A DNA stretch of 64,000 bases. Origin: an uncultured Verrucomicrobiae bacterium. GTDB lineage: Bacteria > Verrucomicrobiota > Verrucomicrobiia > Chthoniobacterales > Terrimicrobiaceae. This document shows positions 25,090 to 35,763 of the stretch, piece after piece. The notes under the pieces are model-generated. The model did not search any database. It saw only the letters and a program-made list of their open reading frames with translations, and had not been told where the DNA came from. Location: positions 96,001-160,000 of the forward strand of contig CAVPOC010000005.1 of the NCBI GenBank assembly GCA_963706955.1, written 5' to 3'. Both the position numbers and the translations under genes were made by a program. Position 1 is the stretch's first letter; each line of letters begins with the position of its first letter.

Positions 25090-27132
25090 GTGATCCCAGG
25101 AGCCCACTCACCTGGGGCGAGAATTTTTCTTGCCTCCTTTCTTGTACTTTTCCTTGAGATCGCGCTGATTCGCTGGATGCCAGCTTACATCCGGTTGCTC
25201 GCTTACTTTTCGAATTTTATCCTCCTGGCCAGCTTTCTCGGAATCGGGGTCGGCTGCCTGCTGGCGTCGTCACGAAAACAGCTCTTCACACTGTTTCCAC
25301 TAATCCAAGCGCTCGTCATCGCGATGGTTTACTTTTTCCGGCTCGAAGTAGCTGTCGCCCCGACCGGGAGCCTCTACTTCTCGAGCGGAACTGCCGAGCA
25401 GGTCGTGGCCGTGGAAAGCACATTGCTGCTGCCGGTGATATTTGTGGTCGTGGCGGCCCTGTTTACCACTCTCGCCCAGCGCATGGGAAAGGAGATGGGC
25501 ACACTTCCGCCGCTCCGCGGATACACGCTAAATCTGCTCGGCAGCCTTACAGGTGTTGGACTCTTTGCGCTCATTTCCTGGTTGCAACTCTCGCCAACCT
25601 GGTGGTTCGCCATTGGCTTCGCCGCGGCAATTCCACTCCTGCTGACCTCCGAGCCGGGCACGGGCCACTCTGCGCCTAAGGGCGTCGCACTCACGACGAA
25701 CATCATTCTCCTGCTCGCCGCGCTGTTTTGTGTTCATCTCCTCGCACGAGGCGCACGCTGGTCACCATACTACAAAATTACCTTTGGACGAGCAGATGGG
25801 GACGCGGTGATAGAGGTGAACAACATTTTTCACCAATCAATGGCCCCGGTAGGCCAGAAAGAATACTTCTACCAATGGCCCTACATGGCCTTTGGGGACA
25901 CGTTTCAAAACGTTCTCGTCCTCGGCGCAGGCTCGGGAACGGATGTTGCCGCGGCCTTGAAACATGGCGCCATTCATGTTGATGCCGTCGAGATTGATCC
26001 CGTAATTGTCCAGCTCGGGCGTGAATATCATCCTGATAGGCCCTATTCCGATCCTCGCGTTAACGTCATCATCGACGACGCACGACATTTTCTCAGGACA
26101 ACAACGAAGAAGTATGATCTGGTAGTTTTTGCCTTGATCGATTCGCTGACGCTGCAATCAAGCTTCTCCGGCGTCCGGCTGGAGAGTTATATGTTTACGG
26201 AGGAAGCCTTCCAAGCTGTCAAGAATCGCCTCGCCGCAGACGGGTTGCTGGTCGTCTACAACTACTTCCGCGAACCATGGCTCGTCGATCGGCTGGCAAA
26301 CATCTCGGCTGCGGCCTTTGGGCAGGAACCACGTGTGCACGTCCATGAAGCGCGTGCCTATCTTGGGGTCTTAATGGCTGGGCCGAGACTATCCAAGTTG
26401 ACAAAGGATCCATCGATCCCGGTGCGCGTTACTGCGTATGGGCAGTCGCACGCACCAAGTCCGGCACGTATCCATAGACGCGATGCGACCATTGAACCGG
26501 CAAGTGACGATTGGCCGTTTCTTTACCTTCGTGACCGCCACATCCCCCAGCACTATCTTTCCGCATTGGGTCTCATCCTGGCAGTATCTACGGTTGCCGT
26601 TTTCCTCGTTCTTCGGGGACATCCCGGGAGATGGGCATGGGACTTCTTCCTTCTCGGAGCTGGATTCATGCTCCTCGAGACCCGATCGATCACTCAGTTT
26701 GCGCTGTTGTGGGGATCAACGTGGGTAGTGGCATCGCTCGCCATTGCCTCTGTCCTGGCGATGGCGCTCGTGGCCAACTTCATTGTCTCCAAAGTTGAGA
26801 TCGTCAGATTATGGTTGGTCGGAGGTATTCTTTTCACCCTCCTGGCGGTGAACTTCTTGATTCCTGTCGGCTCAATCAGCTTTGAGTCCCGTATCGTCGA
26901 ATCGCTTTTCTACGCCGGCCTAATGTTTAGCCCGATCTTGTGTGCGGGACTGTTGTTTGGTTCTTCCGTTAAGCGATCGACGGCGCTCGCTCGGGACTAT
27001 GGCACCAATCTTCTCGGCGCGATGTTCGGCGGAGTCAGTGAATACCTCGCCTTAGTCACCGGCTTCGGCACACTACTGTTCGCCATCGCACTTTGCTACG
27101 TCGGCGCCATTGTTGCCATGAAACGACACTAA
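25090..27132 (+). CDS. Polytopic membrane protein with a central spermidine-synthase-like SAM-binding domain
   Basis: VLVLGAGSGTD, VEIDP, DDARHFL, YDLVVF and DDWPFLY, flanked by many TMs. Confidence 0.8.
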   Translation: MIPGAHSPGARIFLASFLVLFLEIALIRWMPAYIRLLAYFSNFILLASFLGIGVGCLLASSRKQLFTLFPLIQALVIAMVYFFRLEVAVAPTGSLYFSSGTAEQVVAVESTLLLPVIFVVVAALFTTLAQRMGKEMGTLPPLRGYTLNLLGSLTGVGLFALISWLQLSPTWWFAIGFAAAIPLLLTSEPGTGHSAPKGVALTTNIILLLAALFCVHLLARGARWSPYYKITFGRADGDAVIEVNNIFHQSMAPVGQKEYFYQWPYMAFGDTFQNVLVLGAGSGTDVAAALKHGAIHVDAVEIDPVIVQLGREYHPDRPYSDPRVNVIIDDARHFLRTTTKKYDLVVFALIDSLTLQSSFSGVRLESYMFTEEAFQAVKNRLAADGLLVVYNYFREPWLVDRLANISAAAFGQEPRVHVHEARAYLGVLMAGPRLSKLTKDPSIPVRVTAYGQSHAPSPARIHRRDATIEPASDDWPFLYLRDRHIPQHYLSALGLILAVSTVAVFLVLRGHPGRWAWDFFLLGAGFMLLETRSITQFALLWGSTWVVASLAIASVLAMALVANFIVSKVEIVRLWLVGGILFTLLAVNFLIPVGSISFESRIVESLFYAGLMFSPILCAGLLFGSSVKRSTALARDYGTNLLGAMFGGVSEYLALVTGFGTLLFAIALCYVGAIVAMKRH

Positions 27133-27210: not shown

Positions 27211-27339
27211 TTATCTCCAAGTGTAATCCCGAAAGAGTCGTCTGGCCGTTGCCCCTTTTGGGTCCTTGCTTGGCTTCAGGTCCTTGACTTGAATTGTGCT
27301 CTTTTCTTTCTTCGGCTGTTTGTTTGATTTGGCTTTCAT
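27211..27339 (-). CDS. Putative precursor peptide A6 (42 aa)
   Basis: MKAKSNKQPKKEKSTIQVKDLKPSKDPKGA-TARRLFRDYTWR. The tail follows an AAAAGGGG run, so its frame is sensitive to homopolymer error. Confidence 0.7.
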   Translation of the reverse strand: MKAKSNKQPKKEKSTIQVKDLKPSKDPKGATARRLFRDYTWR

Positions 27340-27502: not shown

Positions 27503-27661
27503 TTATGCGAAACCACCGCCGGCTCCAAGTCGGCGAAGAGGTCTACCAGGCATCTCCCGACCCCGTATTCCTTGCCCCTTCGAGTCCTTAGTTGGCTCCA
27601 GGTCCTTGAGTTGAACAGTGGGGTTAACCTTCTTGGGTTGTTTCGATGACATTTCTTTCAT
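27503..27661 (-). CDS. Putative precursor peptide A5 (52 aa)
   Basis: MKEMSSKQPKKVNPTVQLKDLEPTKDSKGQ-GIRGREMPGRPLRRLGAGGGFA. Confidence 0.8.
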   Translation of the reverse strand: MKEMSSKQPKKVNPTVQLKDLEPTKDSKGQGIRGREMPGRPLRRLGAGGGFA

Positions 27662-27705
27662 GTCGCTGGTGCGTTTGCGGCTTCTAAGACATCACTGCGC
27701 ATGCC

Positions 27706-27858
27706 CTAGAATGCCAAAGGGCGAAGGGGTCCGGGACGACGCATGGGTAACTCCCGACCAGGTCGGAGTTGCCCCTTTGAATCCTTGGTAGGTTGAAGGT
27801 CTTTGAGTTCGACACCGGGTTTGTCTTTTTTGGACTGTTTCGTTGGTTTCTCTTTCAT
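27706..27858 (-). CDS. Putative precursor peptide A4 (50 aa)
   Basis: MKEKPTKQSKKDKPGVELKDLQPTKDSKGQ-LRPGRELPMRRPGPLRPLAF. Confidence 0.82.
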   Translation of the reverse strand: MKEKPTKQSKKDKPGVELKDLQPTKDSKGQLRPGRELPMRRPGPLRPLAF

Positions 27859-27980
27859 GCTTGTGGTTCGTTCTGTTGTTGTTCTTGCGACTTAGCGCCA
27901 AAACACCGTTTGGCGCCTGCTTTCGCTTGTTCTTACAAAAGTTTGCTGAGTCGGACTTGATTCCTGGGTGATGTCTTCGC
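27855..27980 (-). pseudogene. Degenerate family-B peptide copy B4
   Basis: AKTSPRNQVRLSKLL*EQAKAGAKRCFGAKSQEQQQNEPQA* aligns with B1. It has an internal TAA, and its stop overlaps the A4 start. Confidence 0.6.
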
Positions 27981-28100
27981 CTGGAAGAGTGCACTAACAA
28001 CCGCGACGTCCCGGTCGAGGATCCCCTTGCGAGCTCGGCGTCCGTCAGCAAATCGCGAGCGAGACAGAGGCGGCAACGTTCAATAAGCGGGATCTCGACC

Positions 28101-28250
28101 TTACAACCGCGAAAGACCTCCGGGAATTCGAAGAATATCACGAGAAGCCATCAGTCGCTTTTGCCCTTGGGCATCTTTGATCGGCTTGAGGTCCTTAATT
28201 TGGACGCCGGGTTTTTCTTTTTTGGACTGGTTCGTCGATTTTTCTTTCAT
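28101..28250 (-). CDS. Putative precursor peptide A3 (49 aa)
   Basis: MKEKSTNQSKKEKPGVQIKDLKPIKDAQGQ-KRLMASRDILRIPGGLSRL. Confidence 0.82.
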   Translation of the reverse strand: MKEKSTNQSKKEKPGVQIKDLKPIKDAQGQKRLMASRDILRIPGGLSRL

Positions 28251-28372
28251 GGTTGTGGTTTGTTCTACTGTTGTTCTCGCGATTTCAAACGACGCGAAGT
28301 TGTGTTGCCGAGCTTAGTGTCCCCCTTGGGTGTAGAATCGTGGAATCGATTTGACTTGCCGATGACCCTTCT
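28247..28372 (-). pseudogene. Degenerate family-B peptide copy B3
   Basis: SSASQI / RFHDSTPKGDTKLG...KSREQQ*NKPQP* with a frameshift and an internal stop. Same position as B1, upstream of an A copy. Confidence 0.45.
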
Positions 28373-28502
28373 CGTCCCGGCGGCCGATCCTCGGTTCGCC
28401 GAGGCGTGTTAACTAATAACGGCTACCGTTTAAAAAAATGGCCCCCAGACTCGCCCACTTCGTAGCGACATTGAACGACTGACCGCTGAGTCGCGATCGA
28501 CC

Positions 28503-28676
28503 TCAACGGCGCGGAAAGCGTTCTCCAGGAAGTTGAATTATATCTGGAGAAAGCATTCTCATATCTTGAGAAGGCATCAGTCGCTTCTGTCCTTGGGCAT
28601 CTTTGGTCGGCTTGAGGTCCTTGATTTGAACAGCGGGTTTGTCTTTCTTGGACTGCTTGGATGATTTCTCTTTCAT
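28503..28676 (-). CDS. Putative precursor peptide A2 (57 aa)
   Basis: MKEKSSKQSKKDKPAVQIKDLKPTKDAQGQ-KRLMPSQDMRMLSPDIIQLPGERFPRR. Confidence 0.82.
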   Translation of the reverse strand: MKEKSSKQSKKDKPAVQIKDLKPTKDAQGQKRLMPSQDMRMLSPDIIQLPGERFPRR

Positions 28677-28789
28677 GCGTTTGGTTGGTTCTTTTTTGAC
28701 TTCTGCGGCTTGGCTTCCAAAGTCGGTCCGGCGTGCGGCTTCACCTCGCTCTCGGGAGGAGATTCGTTGAGCCGAATGTGTTTGGCCAA
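28673..28789 (-). CDS. Divergent family-B peptide B2 (TTG start, 38 aa)
   Basis: LAKHIRLNESPPESEVKPHAGPTLEAKPQKSKKNQPNA. Stop overlaps the A2 ATG (ATGA). Confidence 0.5.
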   Translation of the reverse strand: MAKHIRLNESPPESEVKPHAGPTLEAKPQKSKKNQPNA

Positions 28790-28932
28790 TGAGCTTTTCT
28801 CTTCACGAAAGGCGTATAGGCACTAAGCTGTGGTCGTTAACGTAGCTGCGACTATGGATACGCGTTTGCAACTCGTCCACGCCGCCTCAACAGCAACGAA
28901 TAGCCTTTAGGCGCGGTTCGACCTTTAACCCC

Positions 28933-29073
28933 TCAGAAGCCTCCAGGTCTCCGAAAAATCTCTTCAGAGGCCATCATTCGCCTCTGCCCCTGAGCATCCT
29001 TGGTTGGCTTGAGGTCTTTGATTTGGACAGCTGGTTTATCTTTCTTGGACTGCTTGGATGATTTCTCTTTCAT
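28933..29073 (-). CDS. Putative precursor peptide A1 (46 aa)
   Basis: MKEKSSKQSKKDKPAVQIKDLKPTKDAQGQ-RRMMASEEIFRRPGGF. Confidence 0.82.
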   Translation of the reverse strand: MKEKSSKQSKKDKPAVQIKDLKPTKDAQGQRRMMASEEIFRRPGGF

Positions 29074-29075
29074 GC

Positions 29076-29183
29076 TTACGGTTCACTCTTTTTTGGGTTT
29101 TGCGGCTTGGCACCAAACACCATTCGGCGGCCCGCTTTGGCGTCCTTCTTGGGTATGAGATCGTCGAGCCGAATCTGATTCAT
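29076..29183 (-). CDS. Family-B peptide B1 (35 aa)
   Basis: MNQIRLDDLIPKKDAKAG-RRMVFGAKPQNPKKSEP. Shares DLxPxKDxx with the A leaders. Confidence 0.72.
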   Translation of the reverse strand: MNQIRLDDLIPKKDAKAGRRMVFGAKPQNPKKSEP

Positions 29184-29265
29184 CGGCGACGTTTTCTCGG
29201 CGCGGGCAGGGGTCGAGCGATGCTTGGGCGGTTGATCACTCACGTTTAAGCCTCGGACGTCTAAG

Positions 29266-29281
29266 ATCAAATTTCATGCCA
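29266..29281 (-). promoter_or_regulatory. Candidate sigma-54 (-24/-12) promoter for the peptide array
   Basis: TGGCATGAAATTTGAT against consensus TGGCAC-N5-TTGCW: correct spacing, GA in place of GC at -12. It lies between the activator gene and B1. Confidence 0.55.
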
Positions 29282-29414: not shown

Positions 29415-30399
29415 TTAGTTTGGAGCCAGGCCGCGCAGATGCCGCGCAAGTTTCCCTCTCGAAATCCGGAGGATCCGGGCAGTTTCGCGTTGGTTGCAAT
29501 CCGACATCTCGTAGACGCGACGGACGTGCTCACGGATAATGGCGTCAAGAGCAAACTGGTTTGCAGCTTCCTCGTGCGCGGCAGTTCCCTTGGCACCATT
29601 TAGTGGTCGCTCCACTGCGAGATCGCGCTCAAACGAGACGTGCTTAGGGTGAACCACGTTGCCATCACAAAAGAGCGCAACGCTACGCATGGTATGGTAG
29701 AGTTCGCGTAGGTTTCCCGGCCAGGCATGATTCAGCAGCATCTCCATGGCCGCAGGATGAATGGATGTGATGCGATTTCCCGATCTCAGCCGCTGCGGCC
29801 TCAAGTTCCATGGCGATCAAAGAGGGCAAATCTTCCTGGCGCTCGCACAGCGAAGGGATGAACAGCACGAGGCCATCAAGGCGATGATAGAGATCCTCGC
29901 GAAATTTTCCCGCGGCAATACGCTCCCGCAGCGAGCAATTCGTTGCGGAGATGATGCGGACATTCGAACGGTGCAGGCGCTCACCTCCGACGCGCTCGAA
30001 CTCGCCATACTCCACCGCGCGCAGGATCTTCGCTTGGGCAAGTGGGCTCATGTCCGCAATTTCATCGAGGAAAAGCGTGCCGGTGTGAGCCGTCTCAAAC
30101 TTTCCTCGATGCACCTGCATTGCTCCGGTGAACGCGCCGCGTTCGTGGCCGAAAAGCTCGCTTTCGAGCAGCGTGTCACTCATTGAGGATGCGTTGAAGG
30201 AAACAAATGGTCCGTGCGCTCGCGCCGAAGAATTGTGAATAGCATGCGCCAGCAGGGTCTTGCCCGTTCCGGTCCGGCCGAGAATGAGCACCGGAGCGTC
30301 GCTTTTGGCAGCAAAGGATGCCAGTTGGAGACACCGTCGCATGACGGGATTACGCGAAGTGAGTTCCTCCAAACGCAGATCGGTAATGGTCCGCATCAT
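29415..30399 (-). CDS. Sigma-54-dependent activator (AAA+ plus HTH, no receiver domain), frameshift near 29775
   Basis: GRTGTGKT, ESELFGHERGAFTGA, LFLDEI and FREDLYHRL, then in the second frame WPGNLREL and NQRETARILRISR. Confidence 0.88.
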
Positions 30400-30403
30400 G
30401 AGG

Positions 30404-31597
30404 TCACGGTTGAAGATTCTCCCGCAGCTGGCGGATCGGCTCAAAGGCATGCTCGATCAAAGTGCGACTGCCGACGGTGACACGCGCCTCACCCTGCATG
30501 CCAACTCGCAAAGGGCGCTCTTCGCTTTTCACGCGAATGAAGGGCCGATCGAGCGACGCCGCGGCGGTGAACTGTCGGCTGCGCTCGGAGGCAACAGCCG
30601 CGGCGCTGATCCATTTTAGCTCGCCTGTCACCGTGCCGTAACGCTGATACGGAAATGCATCGAAGAACAATCTGACATGCTGCCCGATGGTCAGCCGCGC
30701 GAGGCCAGATTCACGAACGACCAAGCGGGCGTATGGGATGGCATCGATCGGGGCAAGTTGGCAAAGTTCCGCCCCCGCTGGCACGACGCTGCCCGCGTTT
30801 CGCTGGGCAAGCGAGATGACCACCGCATCATAGGGTGCGCGGATCGACAGGAGGTCGTTGCGCGTGCCAAGGAGATCGCGTTGCAGAGCATCGATCTGCA
30901 ACTTGAGTTTCTGCACATCCGCGATCTCCTCAGTTCGACGACGCGCCCGCTCGGTATCGAGCTTGCTGCGTTCGAGTTTCAGTGCCTCCAAGGATCTTCC
31001 GGCCACATGGAAATCTTTCTCGGATTCAGCGAGGTCCAACTGCACGCGTGTCAATTCGAGGTGCGAGACGCCGCCCATCCGCGCGAGTCTGTCGAGCCGC
31101 TCCACCAAGTCGCGACTCGTTGCGGTATGTGTCCCGCGAAACTCCAGCTCGCGTTCGAACTGAGCGATCTCCTCGCTTTTGATTCTTCGCTGGGCGATAT
31201 GGGCCGCCTCCATTTTGACGATCGTGTCCTCTTGGGTTCGGAGGTCCTGTGTCAACGTCTGAAGCTGCGTATGTTTCGCGCGAACCTCATCGGAGCGGAG
31301 GACGAAGAGTTCCGCGCCGGCGGCGACCTCTTGCGCCTCGACAACGCGAACGTCGCTGACGACACCGTGATAGGGCGCTTGGATCGGATCGGCACCATGT
31401 CTTGGCGCGAGCACAAATTGACAGCGCACCGTCTCCGGAACCTGAACGACAAGGGCCGCGATGAGCGCAACAACGAAGATTAGTGCCAATAGCCACGCCG
31501 TGCCCGAGACGATCAAAGGCGGTGGCTCGACCGGAAGCATTTCAGCCTGCTCATCTGACTCGCGTTTGCTCTGCGGGAGGGTCGAATTCATGAGCAA
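30404..31597 (-). CDS. HlyD family membrane fusion protein
   Basis: N-terminal TM, coiled coil, IRAPYDAVV, FDAFPYQRYG and LRVGM. Confidence 0.92.
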   Translation of the reverse strand: MLMNSTLPQSKRESDEQAEMLPVEPPPLIVSGTAWLLALIFVVALIAALVVQVPETVRCQFVLAPRHGADPIQAPYHGVVSDVRVVEAQEVAAGAELFVLRSDEVRAKHTQLQTLTQDLRTQEDTIVKMEAAHIAQRRIKSEEIAQFERELEFRGTHTATSRDLVERLDRLARMGGVSHLELTRVQLDLAESEKDFHVAGRSLEALKLERSKLDTERARRRTEEIADVQKLKLQIDALQRDLLGTRNDLLSIRAPYDAVVISLAQRNAGSVVPAGAELCQLAPIDAIPYARLVVRESGLARLTIGQHVRLFFDAFPYQRYGTVTGELKWISAAAVASERSRQFTAAASLDRPFIRVKSEERPLRVGMQGEARVTVGSRTLIEHAFEPIRQLRENLQP

Positions 31598-31600
31598 AAT

Positions 31601-34600
31601 TCAGATACCCAACTGTTGGCTGGAGAGATGGAAATAGAGACCGCGCCTTGCCATGAGCCCATCGTGTGTGCCGGTCTCGACAATTTCGCCTTTCTCCAAG
31701 ACGACGATCATATCGGCCTCGCGAATGGTGCTCAGGCGATGGGCGATGACAATGCAGGTCCGCCCAACCATCATGCGACTGAGATTGTCCTGGATCGCGC
31801 GTTCGGATTCGGTATCAAGCGCGCTGGTCGCCTCGTCGAAAATGAGAATTGGTGGGTCTGTATAGAGTGCGCGCGCGATGGCGACGCGTTGTTTCTGTCC
31901 GCCGGATAGGGCGATGCCAGTCTCACCGATGCTCGTCTCGTAGCCCATGGGCATCCGCATGATGAAGTCGTGAGCATTGGCGACCTGGGCACACCAAAGG
32001 ACGCGGTCGAAGTCCGGCTCGGGGTCGCCGAAGGCGATGTTGCGGGAGATGCTTTCACTAAAAATATGATTATCCTGGAGAACGATTCCGATTTGCCGGC
32101 GCACATCACGAAAGTTGAGCTCCTTGAGGTCCCGCCGGTCGAAGAGGATCGTCCCTGTGGTGGGCTCGATTAAACTAGCGAGCAGCTTTACGAGCGTAGT
32201 CTTCCCGCTGCCACTCCGGCCGACGATCGCGACGATCTTGCCGGGAACAAACTCGATGCTAATGCCTTTTAAGATGTCAGGCGCCTCGGGGCCGCCATAT
32301 TTAAAGCCAACGCCGCGCAATTCGATATGTCCTTCCAAAGAATGCACAGGGATGAGGCGCGCGCGATCGCTCCCCTGCTCCGGCTCCGGCTCGAAGATGT
32401 CGTTAAGACGATCGAGAAGCACAGCGATCCATTGCCACTGATCCCAGATGCCAAGTGTCCGTAAAATGGCCGCATACGCCATCGCGGTCAGCGAACTGAA
32501 GGCCACAAATGCGCCCACTGTAAGTTGTCCCTCCATGACCTTACTGGCGCCCACCCACAGGAAAAGCGCCGTTGAGAGCAATCCAATTGTTTGAATCACT
32601 CCGTCATAGGACATGAGAATGAAGTTCGAACGAAACATCTTTCGCAAGACGCTTAGATATTCGTTGAGCATCGAATTGCGAAAGCTGAGCTCGGCGGCGG
32701 ACGCCTTGACGGCTTCAATTCCTTTGATGGCGTCAATTTGTTGCGAGGCGTACTTTCCCTGACTCTCCTCAATGTCAAAGAAGAGCGGGCGCAGCACTTT
32801 GGCCGACCAGATCATCAGGAGCGTGTAAAGAGGCATCGTGATCATGAAGACGCCGGCTAGAGCCGGGCTGTAGACCAGCATCATGCCAAGCGCGCCAGCA
32901 AGCGTGATGATGGAGAAAAGACCGCCAATGCCATGCTCGACTGCGAAAAGTCTTATTTCCCGTGCGCCATTGAGGCGACGTTGGATGTCGCCGGTCCGTC
33001 GACTGTGAAAATATGACATCGGCAGGGAAAGCAGCTGACGAGTGAGAAAGTCGAGTAGAGTCGCGTCTATCCGGACCGCCGCGAAGCTGAGGAAATATTG
33101 CTGGAGAAGGTTGGCAAGCTGGGTGAAGACGATGGCTGCTCCCATCCCGATCAAAACCACATGGAGGAGATCGGCGTTGTTTTCGACGACCACCCGATCC
33201 AAGACAATCTGCGTGAAGACTGGGAAGAGAAGCTGCAAAAAGGTGACGATGCCCGCGAGGATTAGCGCCTGCAGGAGGATCATTCGGTGCTGCCGGAACA
33301 GGGGTGCGAAACGTCTTACGGTTGATTGTGCTTCCGGAGCCTGTGCGAATGCCTCGGTATAGTCGAACAGGGCGGTGTAACCCGACCACTTGGCGGCGAA
33401 TTCCGAGCGAGAGATGCGCCGAAGACCCGCCGCAGGATCAGCCACTCTCACATACGAAGGCGTCACATCGTAGAGGACCATCCAGTGGTTCCCTTCCCAA
33501 TGGACGATCGCCGGCATCGGAAGGTTCGGAAGATTCCGTGGGGAAACCTTGAGCATGCGGGCGGCAAGCCCCAGTTCGCCGGCTGCATGGCAGATTGCCT
33601 TCAGGCTGGTGCCGTCCCGTGACGTGTGGCAAAGCTCGCGGATACGCGAAAGACTTACCTTGCGACCGAAGTGCCGGCAAATCATTGCCAGGCTGGCTGC
33701 ACCACAGTCCATCTCGTCGATCTGCTGCACATGCGGTATGCGGCGGATGCGTCTCTTGTCGCGGGGACGGAACAGGCCTTCCCTGTCGTCTGAGGGCTCC
33801 GGCTGCTCCTCATCCAACGCAACCTTGTCCTGCACCCGCGTCTCAGCCGGAAGCAGCTCTTCCGCAAAATCAAGCGGAACACGCGCAACGACATCGGCTT
33901 GATACTGCGCAAGACGTTCCTCAAGTAATTTGCGAAACTCGGGAAACTGTTCTTTCATCTCGCGCACACTTTCGGGCTGCAGCGCGAGCAGGCGGCAATC
34001 CGCGACTGCTTCGACCGAGGCGGCACGTTGTGACCCATTCAAAATGGAGAGCTCACCGAAAAAGTCGCCGTCTCTGTAAAAAGCCACATTCTTCTGACGG
34101 CCGTTCGATTGCGTGAAAATTCGAACTCGCCCCGACTCGATGACGAAGAGAGGTCCGGCAGGATCGCCCTCACGAAGGATGGTCGCGCCGCGCGCATAAG
34201 CGACCGGCGTCATCTTCTCGACCAGTGTCCTGAGAGCGCGTTCTGGAAGTCGCCCGAAGTTGCTAAACTCATGCAGAAAGCCATGCAAAGTGCGATGCCG
34301 CGAGGTCAGCTCGACCGCGGTCTTCAAGTCGGGATGCTCAGTCAACAATGAGAGAAAGTCGGCCCGGTTGAGCCGGAGAGCGTCCACCGCAGTACTGCAC
34401 CGGACAGTGGCATTTCGGCAACCGCCCGCGATGAGGGCCTGTTCGCCAAACTGGTCGCCCGGGCGAAGAACGGCCAAGGCAACCTCTTGACCCTCCTTGA
34501 TCTCCTTGACGACGCGAGCCCGGCCGTTGACGAGGATGTAACAGGCATCCGCTTCGTCTCCTTCTCTGACGATCACGTCGCCGAATTCGAAATGCTCCTC

Positions 34601-34693
34601 CTGGAGCACGGCACGCAGGCAGTCAGCCCGATCTTCCGGCAGAAAGCGGAAAAAAGACGAGCGATCCAAGACTTCGTTTTGGTGTTGCGTCAT
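31601..34693 (-). CDS. Peptidase-containing ABC transporter: 2x cNMP-binding + C39 peptidase + TMD + NBD
   Basis: FGEQAL..RNATVR and FFGELSI..RAASV (cNMP); QQIDEMDCGAASL and HWEGNHW (C39); GRSGSGKT, LSGGQKQR and DEATSALD. Start ATG 34693 overlaps the upstream stop. Confidence 0.95.
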   Translation of the reverse strand: MTQHQNEVLDRSSFFRFLPEDRADCLRAVLQEEHFEFGDVIVREGDEADACYILVNGRARVVKEIKEGQEVALAVLRPGDQFGEQALIAGGCRNATVRCSTAVDALRLNRADFLSLLTEHPDLKTAVELTSRHRTLHGFLHEFSNFGRLPERALRTLVEKMTPVAYARGATILREGDPAGPLFVIESGRVRIFTQSNGRQKNVAFYRDGDFFGELSILNGSQRAASVEAVADCRLLALQPESVREMKEQFPEFRKLLEERLAQYQADVVARVPLDFAEELLPAETRVQDKVALDEEQPEPSDDREGLFRPRDKRRIRRIPHVQQIDEMDCGAASLAMICRHFGRKVSLSRIRELCHTSRDGTSLKAICHAAGELGLAARMLKVSPRNLPNLPMPAIVHWEGNHWMVLYDVTPSYVRVADPAAGLRRISRSEFAAKWSGYTALFDYTEAFAQAPEAQSTVRRFAPLFRQHRMILLQALILAGIVTFLQLLFPVFTQIVLDRVVVENNADLLHVVLIGMGAAIVFTQLANLLQQYFLSFAAVRIDATLLDFLTRQLLSLPMSYFHSRRTGDIQRRLNGAREIRLFAVEHGIGGLFSIITLAGALGMMLVYSPALAGVFMITMPLYTLLMIWSAKVLRPLFFDIEESQGKYASQQIDAIKGIEAVKASAAELSFRNSMLNEYLSVLRKMFRSNFILMSYDGVIQTIGLLSTALFLWVGASKVMEGQLTVGAFVAFSSLTAMAYAAILRTLGIWDQWQWIAVLLDRLNDIFEPEPEQGSDRARLIPVHSLEGHIELRGVGFKYGGPEAPDILKGISIEFVPGKIVAIVGRSGSGKTTLVKLLASLIEPTTGTILFDRRDLKELNFRDVRRQIGIVLQDNHIFSESISRNIAFGDPEPDFDRVLWCAQVANAHDFIMRMPMGYETSIGETGIALSGGQKQRVAIARALYTDPPILIFDEATSALDTESERAIQDNLSRMMVGRTCIVIAHRLSTIREADMIVVLEKGEIVETGTHDGLMARRGLYFHLSSQQLGI

Positions 34694-35763
34694 GGGGCGC
34701 CAATCGGCGGCAAAATCCATCGCACGAAACGCCCGGCCAGTTCGGAAAAATAGCGCTCCACGATCTTCGCTTCCACACGATGCCGCACTTCATCATCGGT
34801 CAGATCGAAGTCTGTCTTCCCCAGCAATCGGCAAAGCTCGAAGTGCCCTTCGTGTTCGATCGGATCGAGGATTTCTCCGGGCCTGGCGCTGAGAAGCCTC
34901 GGCTGTAGATCTTCCGGCAGGTCCTCGTAGAAGACACGGCTGCGCCGATAAGGATAGCCTGCACCAGAGGCGACCTCTTCCATCGGCTCGCCGTCTGCGC
35001 TCACGCATTCGAAGACCTCACATGCCGCATCGCGCGAGTCGACTTCAATGAGCTCCAGATCGAATCTCATCAAAGGCATTCTCAAGGTGTGCAGCACCCG
35101 CTCGCGCGAGCCAACACTAAGGATCTCCTCGCGCTGGCCTCGGAAGAGGGCTTCCAGTTCCAACATTTCGTTGAACCAAACAACCTCCCGCCCAAGCCCG
35201 AGCAGCCACCTGTCGAGCCCGTCGCCGCCCAGTCCACTGCGTTCCAAGAATCGCGCGCGTTCGCTTTCGATCGCCTTTGCGGTCGGCGCATGGCCCACCC
35301 CCTCGCGTGCCGCGATGCGCCACGCTAACGCAGTTGCGAGGCGATCAAAGTCCCCGGTAAACAGCAGGTCGATCTGCAGTAAATGACGCAGATCCGCCGG
35401 CGCGAACGCATACTCTTCCACTTGCCGGTCTGGGCTGGCGGGAGCCGAAGCAGATACCTGCTCTCGGATGAGGAAATCGCTGAAGTCGTCGAGACTCAGG
35501 CCACGTTCGTCCAGCCATCGCTCGGTTTCCTCAGCACTGATCAGATCACGGTTGATGCGGAACTCCTCTGAGCGGGCCTGCAGGTCCGCTTCGTCCGTTT
35601 CACGACCGCTCGCCCCGCTTTTCACATAGTCGCACACGCGCTTCCAACTCTTTTCGAGGTCACCCCGGAAATGAGCCGCGCAAATGACGTCGTCCATGGT
35701 AATCGTCTTGTTTCCAACATGAAATACCCCAAGATCTCGAACGCCCAACTCTGTGCTAATCAT
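34690..35763 (-). CDS. PpiC/SurA-like foldase-type protein (putative peptide maturation protein)
   Basis: Acidic helical N-terminal part (FRINRDLISAEETERWLDERGLSLDDF) and a rotamase-like C-terminal part (EDLPEDLQPRLLSARPGEILDP). Translationally coupled to the transporter. Confidence 0.6.
   Translation of the reverse strand: MISTELGVRDLGVFHVGNKTITMDDVICAAHFRGDLEKSWKRVCDYVKSGASGRETDEADLQARSEEFRINRDLISAEETERWLDERGLSLDDFSDFLIREQVSASAPASPDRQVEEYAFAPADLRHLLQIDLLFTGDFDRLATALAWRIAAREGVGHAPTAKAIESERARFLERSGLGGDGLDRWLLGLGREVVWFNEMLELEALFRGQREEILSVGSRERVLHTLRMPLMRFDLELIEVDSRDAACEVFECVSADGEPMEEVASGAGYPYRRSRVFYEDLPEDLQPRLLSARPGEILDPIEHEGHFELCRLLGKTDFDLTDDEVRHRVEAKIVERYFSELAGRFVRWILPPIGAP

Follow-up and report, generated by a model that had tools for sequence, protein, structure and literature searches.

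Known C39 transporters and the precursor array

Peptidase-containing ATP-binding cassette (ABC) transporters of the PCAT/AMS family, such as LahT, PCAT1, ComA and RaxB, dock the leader of their cargo at a distance, thread residues P3 to P1 through the narrow cleft of a C39 peptidase domain and cut after P1 (PMC6363468; PMC10885120; papers are cited throughout for excerpts of their text). Secretion of mature peptide is abolished when RaxB loses its catalytic Cys or His (bioRxiv 10.1101/442517), which suggests that the cargo is normally cut. A long side chain at P1 has a precedent in OrgT, which cuts after Gly-Lys, uses a hydrophobic leader pair at -9 and -14 and was presented by its authors as part of the first PCAT group without a double-glycine site (PMC12457901); the HetC domain has been assayed on L-arginine p-nitroanilide (PMC10986499). 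In cyanobacterial bacteriocin groups I, II and VI and with HetC, a long transporter with an N-terminal cyclic-nucleotide-binding (cNMP) domain is accompanied by HlyD and a SurA/rotamase gene (PMC3140520, PMC10986499). Here we describe an array of seven precursor genes and a nearby C39 transporter in a 64,000-nucleotide stretch of contig CAVPOC010000005.1 from an uncultured Verrucomicrobiae bacterium (the window, to which all positions refer). Five of the precursors carry Gly-Gln (GQ) where a double-glycine site is expected. Judged from the sequences compared, this departure from the double-glycine rule is real, conserved and derived in one clade of soil bacteria.

The seven precursors lie on the minus strand. 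A1 (28933..29073), A2 (28503..28676) and A3 (28101..28250) read DAQGQ at the site, A4 (27706..27858) and A5 (27503..27661) read DSKGQ, and A6, the last in the array (27211..27339), reads DPKGA, with GA encoded at 27250-27255. B1, a conserved B-type precursor (29076..29243), reads DAKAG, with Ala-Gly at the site. A6 and B1 both lie just outside the interval 27503..29073 covered by the preliminary description of this DNA, whose site sequences were recovered when the array was read again. The same is true of the three codon spellings that it had reported: GGG CAG in A1 (28984-28989), GGA CAG in A2 (28587-28592) and GGG CAA in A3 (28161-28166), A4 (27769-27774) and A5 (27572-27577). The motif D-L-x-P-x-K-D is common to all seven peptides and is followed, two residues on, by GQ, GA or AG and then by a variable tail. 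As a six-frame scan of the 4.16 Mb genome with the strict leader motif matches only these seven places, the likeness of the leaders is not due to chance; none of the peptides has a Pfam or NCBIfam match at E 0.1. The peptides predicted to be released from A1-A5 comprise 16-27 residues with a net charge of +2 to +4.

Only A6 presents GG, GA or GS at P2-P1. A1-A5 and B1 are thus not double-glycine peptides by definition, yet most likely work like them. The preliminary description had assumed that C39 domains normally cut after GG, GA or GS. Its view of the site as non-canonical holds, and holds clade-wide, but the rule, taken strictly, is outdated, as OrgT cuts after Gly-Lys (PMC12457901).

With regard to sequencing or assembly error, the array was compared with Logan contigs, rather than raw reads, from three DNA runs and one RNA-library run of four studies, one run being possibly the source of the window itself. 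A1 is present in X5 record 21 with no other letters, A2 in X5 record 19 with three differences (28585, 28611 and 28629) outside the GQ codons, A3 in X5 record 18 without differences and in X2 record 8, and A4 in X2 record 8 with two differences (27826 and 28436). The GQ sites of A1-A4 are therefore matched base for base by public contigs. A5 is spanned by no contig among the matches listed; its orthologue at locus L031 has the same GGG CAA. The window does differ from the contigs by indels within 250 bases of A1 and in the neighbouring sigma-54 activator gene (29415..30450, minus strand; PF00158, no sensor domain). All three DNA runs have one more base after 28939, so that a one-base deletion in the window has probably put the final codons of A1 out of frame. 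The activator is split by one extra base near 29773-29775, which neither three relatives nor the contigs of X5 and X7 have. Both features, the A1 end and the interrupted activator, are probably assembly errors or variants private to this assembly. An origin of GQ from GG by such an error is, in contrast, next to impossible and was rejected: four sites are matched in contigs, and GQ recurs in 44 of 55 homologues and in four other genomes, in agreement with the earlier argument against a homopolymer error. One X5 contig joins 28641 to 29039, a variant without one 397-base unit, and the copy number of the array thus varies.

Gly-Gln sites in relatives

A profile of A1-A6, which favours kin as it was built from GQ sequences, retrieved 55 proteins, with GQ at the site in 44, GG in six, GA in four and GK in one. 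The leader of P0002 is identical to that of A1, and this protein may come from the same organism. A transporter search independently gave 79 loci from genomes (best 80 of 158 matches). The strict pattern yielded precursors at 55 of the 76 loci outside the clade, where GG occupies 100 of 102 sites (A-type: GG 60, AG 1; B-type: GG 40, GW 1); a looser pattern applied to 13 outside loci added only GG and AG. In the window and loci L031, L033 and L042, GG is found at none of 17 sites, the A-type precursors having GQ (9), GA (3) or AQ (1) and the B-type precursors AG (4). The A6-type paralogue of relatives has GA or AQ, and AG is found in all nine B1 homologues returned, compared with GG in 40 of 41 outgroup B genes. 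The same set of GQ, GA and AG sites was found in a fifth genome of the same genus and in three metagenome contigs; these three short contigs were all that the metagenome pattern scan produced, and none was shown to carry C39.

The four GQ-clade transporters group on a single branch (SH-aLRT 100; every tree was a quick one supported by SH-aLRT only), and the nearest relatives with known cargo, L032 and the genome with the L134 array, have GG throughout. As GG fills nearly all outside sites and none in the clade, GQ is the derived state. Loci within the clade are not independent, and the counts describe one evolutionary change. Family-wide, the array was found in six of 102 genomes, five of them in the genus of the window. 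At the level of the order, a GG precursor of the clade was matched by 41 of 401 genomes, none of them found to hold the GG sub-lineage. Within the clade, GG sites accompany other core types (P0045, P0046, P0057, P0249; P0034, P0036, P0043, P0248), namely long Gln/Met-rich cores and Tyr/Thr-rich cores ending in PPAP, whereas GQ accompanies Arg/Met/Pro-rich cores.

Leader register, peptidase domain and proposed position of the cut

The basic leader has the consensus V-x-I/L-K-D-L-x-P-x-K-D, with hydrophobic residues at -10, -13 and -15, A/S at -4, T/S at -7 and K at -12. The canonical hydrophobic residues at -4, -7 and -12 are absent, also from the GG outgroup, and the whole family has instead a Val/Leu pair five apart at -15 and -10. 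Conserved leader gives way to variable core at the motif, with a step in entropy after the -1 column: in GQ/GK leaders, it rises from 0.17 bits in the last leader column to 2.58 bits in the next (39 distinct leaders), and in outgroup GG leaders from 0 to 2.9 bits (61 leaders). This step falls at the same column in both groups, as expected if the register is unchanged. Of 109 motif matches, 100 have Gly at P2 and 8 have Ala, the remaining one appearing spurious, while Gly, Gln, Ala and Lys are found at P1 across the family and K, Q, R, T, V, S and others in the column before P2. A P2 that is always small beside a varied P1 is to be expected if the register has stayed the same and P1 is tolerant.

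Conservation of the Gln was assessed by parsimony on 14 distinct GQ leader genes. No change was found at the first two bases of its codon and two at the wobble position, compared with seven at the wobble position of the preceding Gly and 4.0 on average over four invariant four-fold codons; by rough arithmetic, two unconstrained positions would have gathered about eight changes. The leaders show many synonymous changes, yet D, L, P, K, D, G and Q are never replaced. A single base change can turn a Gln codon into one for K, E, R, H, L or P or into a stop, and of these only K is seen. By this codon evidence, Gln is kept by selection, and a mere block to cleavage would require no fixed Gln.

Decay of the GQ copies, as duplicates of one mutated gene, is very improbable in this light. 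The array does contain decayed sequence: by eye, we recognised a B-like copy before A2 (28673..28789, minus strand) and another with an internal stop before A4 (27855..27965, minus strand), which suggest that the array grew partly by duplication of B+A units. The frameshifted activator and the variable copy number would also fit decay. Nevertheless, GQ persists across genomes whose transporters have diverged to synonymous distances (dS) of up to 2, with the leader residues unchanged in spite of the synonymous changes, and the activator frameshift is absent from two runs. RNA-library contigs cover A2, A3 and part of A4, a weak hint given that it has no silent control.

The transporter (31601..34720, minus strand; 1039 residues) comprises two cNMP-binding domains, the C39 peptidase, a membrane domain and an ATPase (Pfam PF00027 twice, PF03412, PF00664 and PF00005), all above cut-off, and has Walker A, signature and Walker B motifs. 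Every feature that sequence and fold can test places it in the PCAT family. The C39 domain (residues 328-453, about 33362-33739) aligns with LahT and PCAT1 and keeps the catalytic Cys and His, as the preliminary description had read, in C339 and H412, together with Q333 and D428. Among 80 aligned transporters, Q and C are found in 80 and H and D in 79 each. With Cys, His, Asp and the oxyanion Gln in place, it is not a degenerate C39-like domain. A single-sequence model (pLDDT 68.6) matches the fold of the PCAT1, LahT and ComA peptidase domains. Among four GQ loci, nonsynonymous distances (dN) of the C39 domain are low (0.025-0.11 at dS 0.35-2.1), which indicates purifying selection; relative to the membrane and ATPase domains, C39 dN is 0.83-1.45 in GQ pairs; for 865 non-independent GG pairs, the median is 0.97 and the 95th percentile 1.34. 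The catalytic triad is kept even at L033, a locus at which the cargo has only GQ, AQ and AG.

Compared with 192 other domains, the only clade-linked changes in C39 are A389M/S, L394P and L402M. Residues 389 and 394 presumably face the leader groove, to judge from work on ComA. A specificity switch at either residue was not accepted: Pro394 is found in 22 of the 192 other domains, and Met389 in P0123 and P0240. These two transporters, which were singled out as a group once a first tree was available, fall within the clade as the sister lineage of the window, and their exclusion was rejected (approximately unbiased test, p-AU 3e-7). The C39 domain of P0123 differs from that of the window at seven of 136 positions. 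The contigs of P0123 and P0240 are as long (7373 and 6081) as those of the GG precursors P0043 and P0248, the leaders of which differ from that of A1 at few residues, and read-through open reading frames join such GG copies to clade-type AG B genes. By this indirect evidence, the sister lineage with its near-identical C39 domain apparently serves GG cargo. If so, one protease sequence serves both GG and GQ cargo.

Taken together, we lean, with modest confidence, towards cleavage after Gln in the ancestral register by a protease tolerant at P1; of the three possibilities raised in the preliminary description, acceptance of Gln at P1 is the best supported, although it is reached by inference. 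The sigma-54 activator would drive transcription of B1 and A1-A6, and the basic leader would dock on the C39 domain and fix the register. At a site that was ancestrally Gly-Gly, the clade protease would still cut in the same register, with a small P2 (Gly, sometimes Ala) and Gln, Ala or Gly at P1. The products would be unmodified cationic peptides of about 22 residues, rich in Arg, Met and Pro, presumably exported through the transporter, HlyD and a TolC-type channel; a role in competition or signalling is a guess.

Several observations weigh against cleavage after Gln. In work on solved structures, the cleft is described as very narrow, and its width is invoked to explain why site residues are small (PMC6363468; PMC6959990). 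The residues examined next to the active site show no compensating change. S372, L373 and C377 do not differ from those in GG loci; L373 and C377 align with A55 and I59 of PCAT1, two leader-contacting residues (PMC6959990). Over 55 transporters, G410 and N411 are likewise conserved. The clade-linked C39 changes also occur in P0123 and P0240, which probably serve GG cargo, and one of the six GQ pairs (1.45) exceeds the GG 95th percentile for relative dN. If GQ were uncut, selection on the protease could still be maintained by the GA site of A6 and the AG site of B1 alone. Moreover, the searches were seeded with GQ sequences, and the codon test drew on 14 leaders selected for having GQ; of the 24 A-type matches in those loci, the five without GQ (four GA, one AQ) all belong to the last-in-array paralogue.

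These observations lend some weight to the view, doubtful but serious, that the GQ copies bind the transporter without being cut at GQ, and instead leave the cell intact, are trimmed by a different protease, are cut at a GG further on or stay inside the cell as competitors of the true substrates A6 and B1. Active-site neighbours unchanged from GG-processing relatives and the narrow cleft (PMC6363468; PMC6959990) are what it would predict. A3 carries a second, canonical-looking GG site near its C-terminus, and a motif of this kind (M-x4-I/M-x2-L/I/V-x-GG) is found there in seven of 60 GQ cores, A3 included, whereas shuffling gave a mean of 0.43 and a maximum of 4 in 2000 trials. As the seven cores are close kin, the shuffle makes this excess look stronger than it is. 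At the corresponding position A2 has PGE and A4 has PGP, and an internal GG, GA or GS is lacking from 21 of the 60 cores. To prevent cleavage, a bulky residue of any kind would do, whereas Gln is fixed, and five of six A copies would be costly as diverging decoys. Trimming by a neighbouring second protease was not supported, as the adjacent alpha/beta hydrolase also occurs in five same-genus genomes without the array and a trypsin-like gene in none of the 79 loci. If the GQ copies are uncut, they would reveal a one-residue cut/no-cut switch on shared cargo, which would also be new.

The preliminary description had further considered a cut between Gly and Gln, leaving cores with an N-terminal Gln that cyclises to pyroglutamate. 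Such a one-residue slip of the register would explain the invariant Gln directly, and Ala sometimes replaces Gly in its column (AQ, AG), just as the two alternate at P1 of GG and GA sites; by our own count, it places Leu and Val at -9 and -14, the OrgT spacing (PMC12457901). We nevertheless regard it as unlikely. P2 would then be Lys, Gln, Thr, Ser or Val, the five residues found before Gly among the 39 distinct GQ/GK leaders, with no change seen at the active site, and the same clade has GG cargo with an almost identical leader (P0043, P0248, P0249). No glutaminyl cyclase gene is linked to the locus: the only matches are weak PF05096 matches far from it, in the genome of the window (E 4e-4, apparently frameshifted) and in one of four other GQ genomes. 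This last point is a weak one, as cyclisation of an N-terminal Gln can be spontaneous. If real, a Gly|Gln cut would break the strictest specificity rule of C39 without a visible change in the active site, and one enzyme type would release exported peptides capped by pyroglutamate from GQ precursors and uncapped ones from GG and GA precursors with the same leader.

The cassette and its relation to known systems

The transporter belongs to a cassette on the minus strand that begins with a PpiC/SurA-like protein (34690..35763; weak matches to TIGR04500, E 3e-8 and below cut-off, and to Rotamase_2) and continues, after the transporter, with an HlyD-family adaptor (30404..31597, assigned by domain matches) and the activator. 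Among the 79 loci, the PpiC-like gene is found in 79, HlyD in 73 and the activator in 67. We infer that the array encodes the cargo of this conserved cassette. The genome has three C39 matches, of which only the transporter of the window is strong, and seven PF02321 matches elsewhere are candidates for the outer-membrane channel, a putative pairing with the HlyD gene that adjoins the transporter. No modifying enzyme besides the PpiC-like protein was found linked to the cassette. The B-type peptide has the conserved core R-x-x-x-F-G-A and is first in the array wherever it is found, while A cores are variable; it may be a shared signal or regulator.

Just upstream of B1 lies a sigma-54-like promoter motif, YGGCAY-N6-TGDT (29266..29281, minus strand). 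It is present in 37 of 37 loci with a B gene, compared with one of 740 random 60-base windows, a partly circular count as the motif was derived from the same 37 loci; the strict sigma-54 pattern was found in two of the 37 and was relaxed afterwards. In all 37 loci, the GGCAY element is clear and TGAT, TGTT or TGGT replaces the usual TTGC. A membrane-bound spermidine-synthase-like gene (25090-27132, plus strand) converges on the array; it is adjacent in two of 79 loci, both of the GQ clade, which probably reflects genus-level synteny.

Further variants of the locus were noted among relatives. The transporters of L035, L043 and L048, from records titled Acidobacteriota/Vicinamibacteria, nest among verrucomicrobial ones; these loci have no activator match, and the precursors of L043 and L048 include AG sites. 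L032, which has no HlyD or activator match, carries three GG precursors on the opposite strand (L032:6502-6820) with the same leader and an NHNETLVRD-like core end, and P0090 repeats leader and NHNE units within one open reading frame. In a GG-type sister family with the same leader (L134:10489-12102; P0079, P0080, P0094, P0102, P0110, P0097 and P0087), the cores resemble fragments of abundant host proteins. Of 15 hand-picked proteins, four pass the cut-off for the H-X9-DG C-terminal motif (TIGR04294, DUF1559 proteins) and one for the TPR end motif, and two have sub-cut-off matches (DUF1559 N-terminus, autotransporter repeat). This suggests that these cores were recruited from the cell's own gene families.

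The GG-type relatives (53 loci) share the genes, promoter motif and leader of the window, and their transporters are about 61-78% identical. They differ in their GG sites and in cores rich in Gly, Ser, Ala, Asn and Arg, with a median of 32 residues when tails of up to 120 are measured, whereas GQ-clade cores are rich in Arg, Gly, Leu, Pro and Met, with a median of 22 residues. Among the best 80 of 158 matches, the cassette occurs mainly in records titled Chthoniobacterales/Verrucomicrobiota and in few Acidobacteriota. As most of the cargo of the GQ clade carries GQ, genome mining by GG, GA or GS would miss or mis-split it. The C39 domains of the window and of P0123, with seven differences in 136 positions and apparently GQ and GG cargo, respectively, form an unusually clean natural pair for the study of P1 specificity, and such a domain could serve as a tool for leader removal.

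The locus resembles the cyanobacterial groups in its cNMP-domain C39 transporter, HlyD and SurA-like gene, the last by a weak match. In contrast to them, it has two cNMP domains, a sigma-54 activator, another leader family and a B + A array, and none of the seven peptides is an NHLP, Nif11 or HetP-type precursor by Pfam or NCBIfam match at E 0.1. With the PCAT/AMS transporters LahT, PCAT1, ComA and RaxB, it shares the layout of C39, membrane and ATPase domains, the catalytic Gln, Cys, His and Asp, and several precursors with a common leader and variable cores. Its cargo differs in ending its leaders with GQ (five), GA (one) or AG (one) and in having Thr/Ser at -7 and Lys at -12, where the canonical helix needs hydrophobic residues (PMC6363468).

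A search of the literature, mostly without subscription papers and without supplements, found nothing on Gly-Gln cleavage by C39 or on this cassette, and a protein-atlas search returned only unnamed clusters. The closest parallel is OrgT/ThgT, with Gly at P2, a long side chain at P1 and a lengthened distance from hydrophobic pair to cut (PMC12457901). The window differs in having Gln rather than Lys, GK being found in one of 55 homologues, and a pair at -10/-15 rather than -9/-14, a spacing that fits only the register shifted by one residue. Its host is Gram-negative and has HlyD. The Cys-rich cores of OrgA/ThgA have no counterpart in A1-A6, which contain no Cys, and GQ-clade cores are nearly Cys-free (0.4%); no glycosyltransferase was found among seven neighbouring long open reading frames scanned, the genome not having been searched for one. 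Cleavage is proven for OrgT, whereas the window is known from its sequence. GQ thus probably widens the known cutting rules of C39 without being the first exception to them, as the Gly-Lys cutter was published in 2025. Cleavage after Gln, if true, would be the second natural exception after Gly-Lys, with the leader fixing the register while P1 changes and the checked neighbours of the active site stay unaltered.

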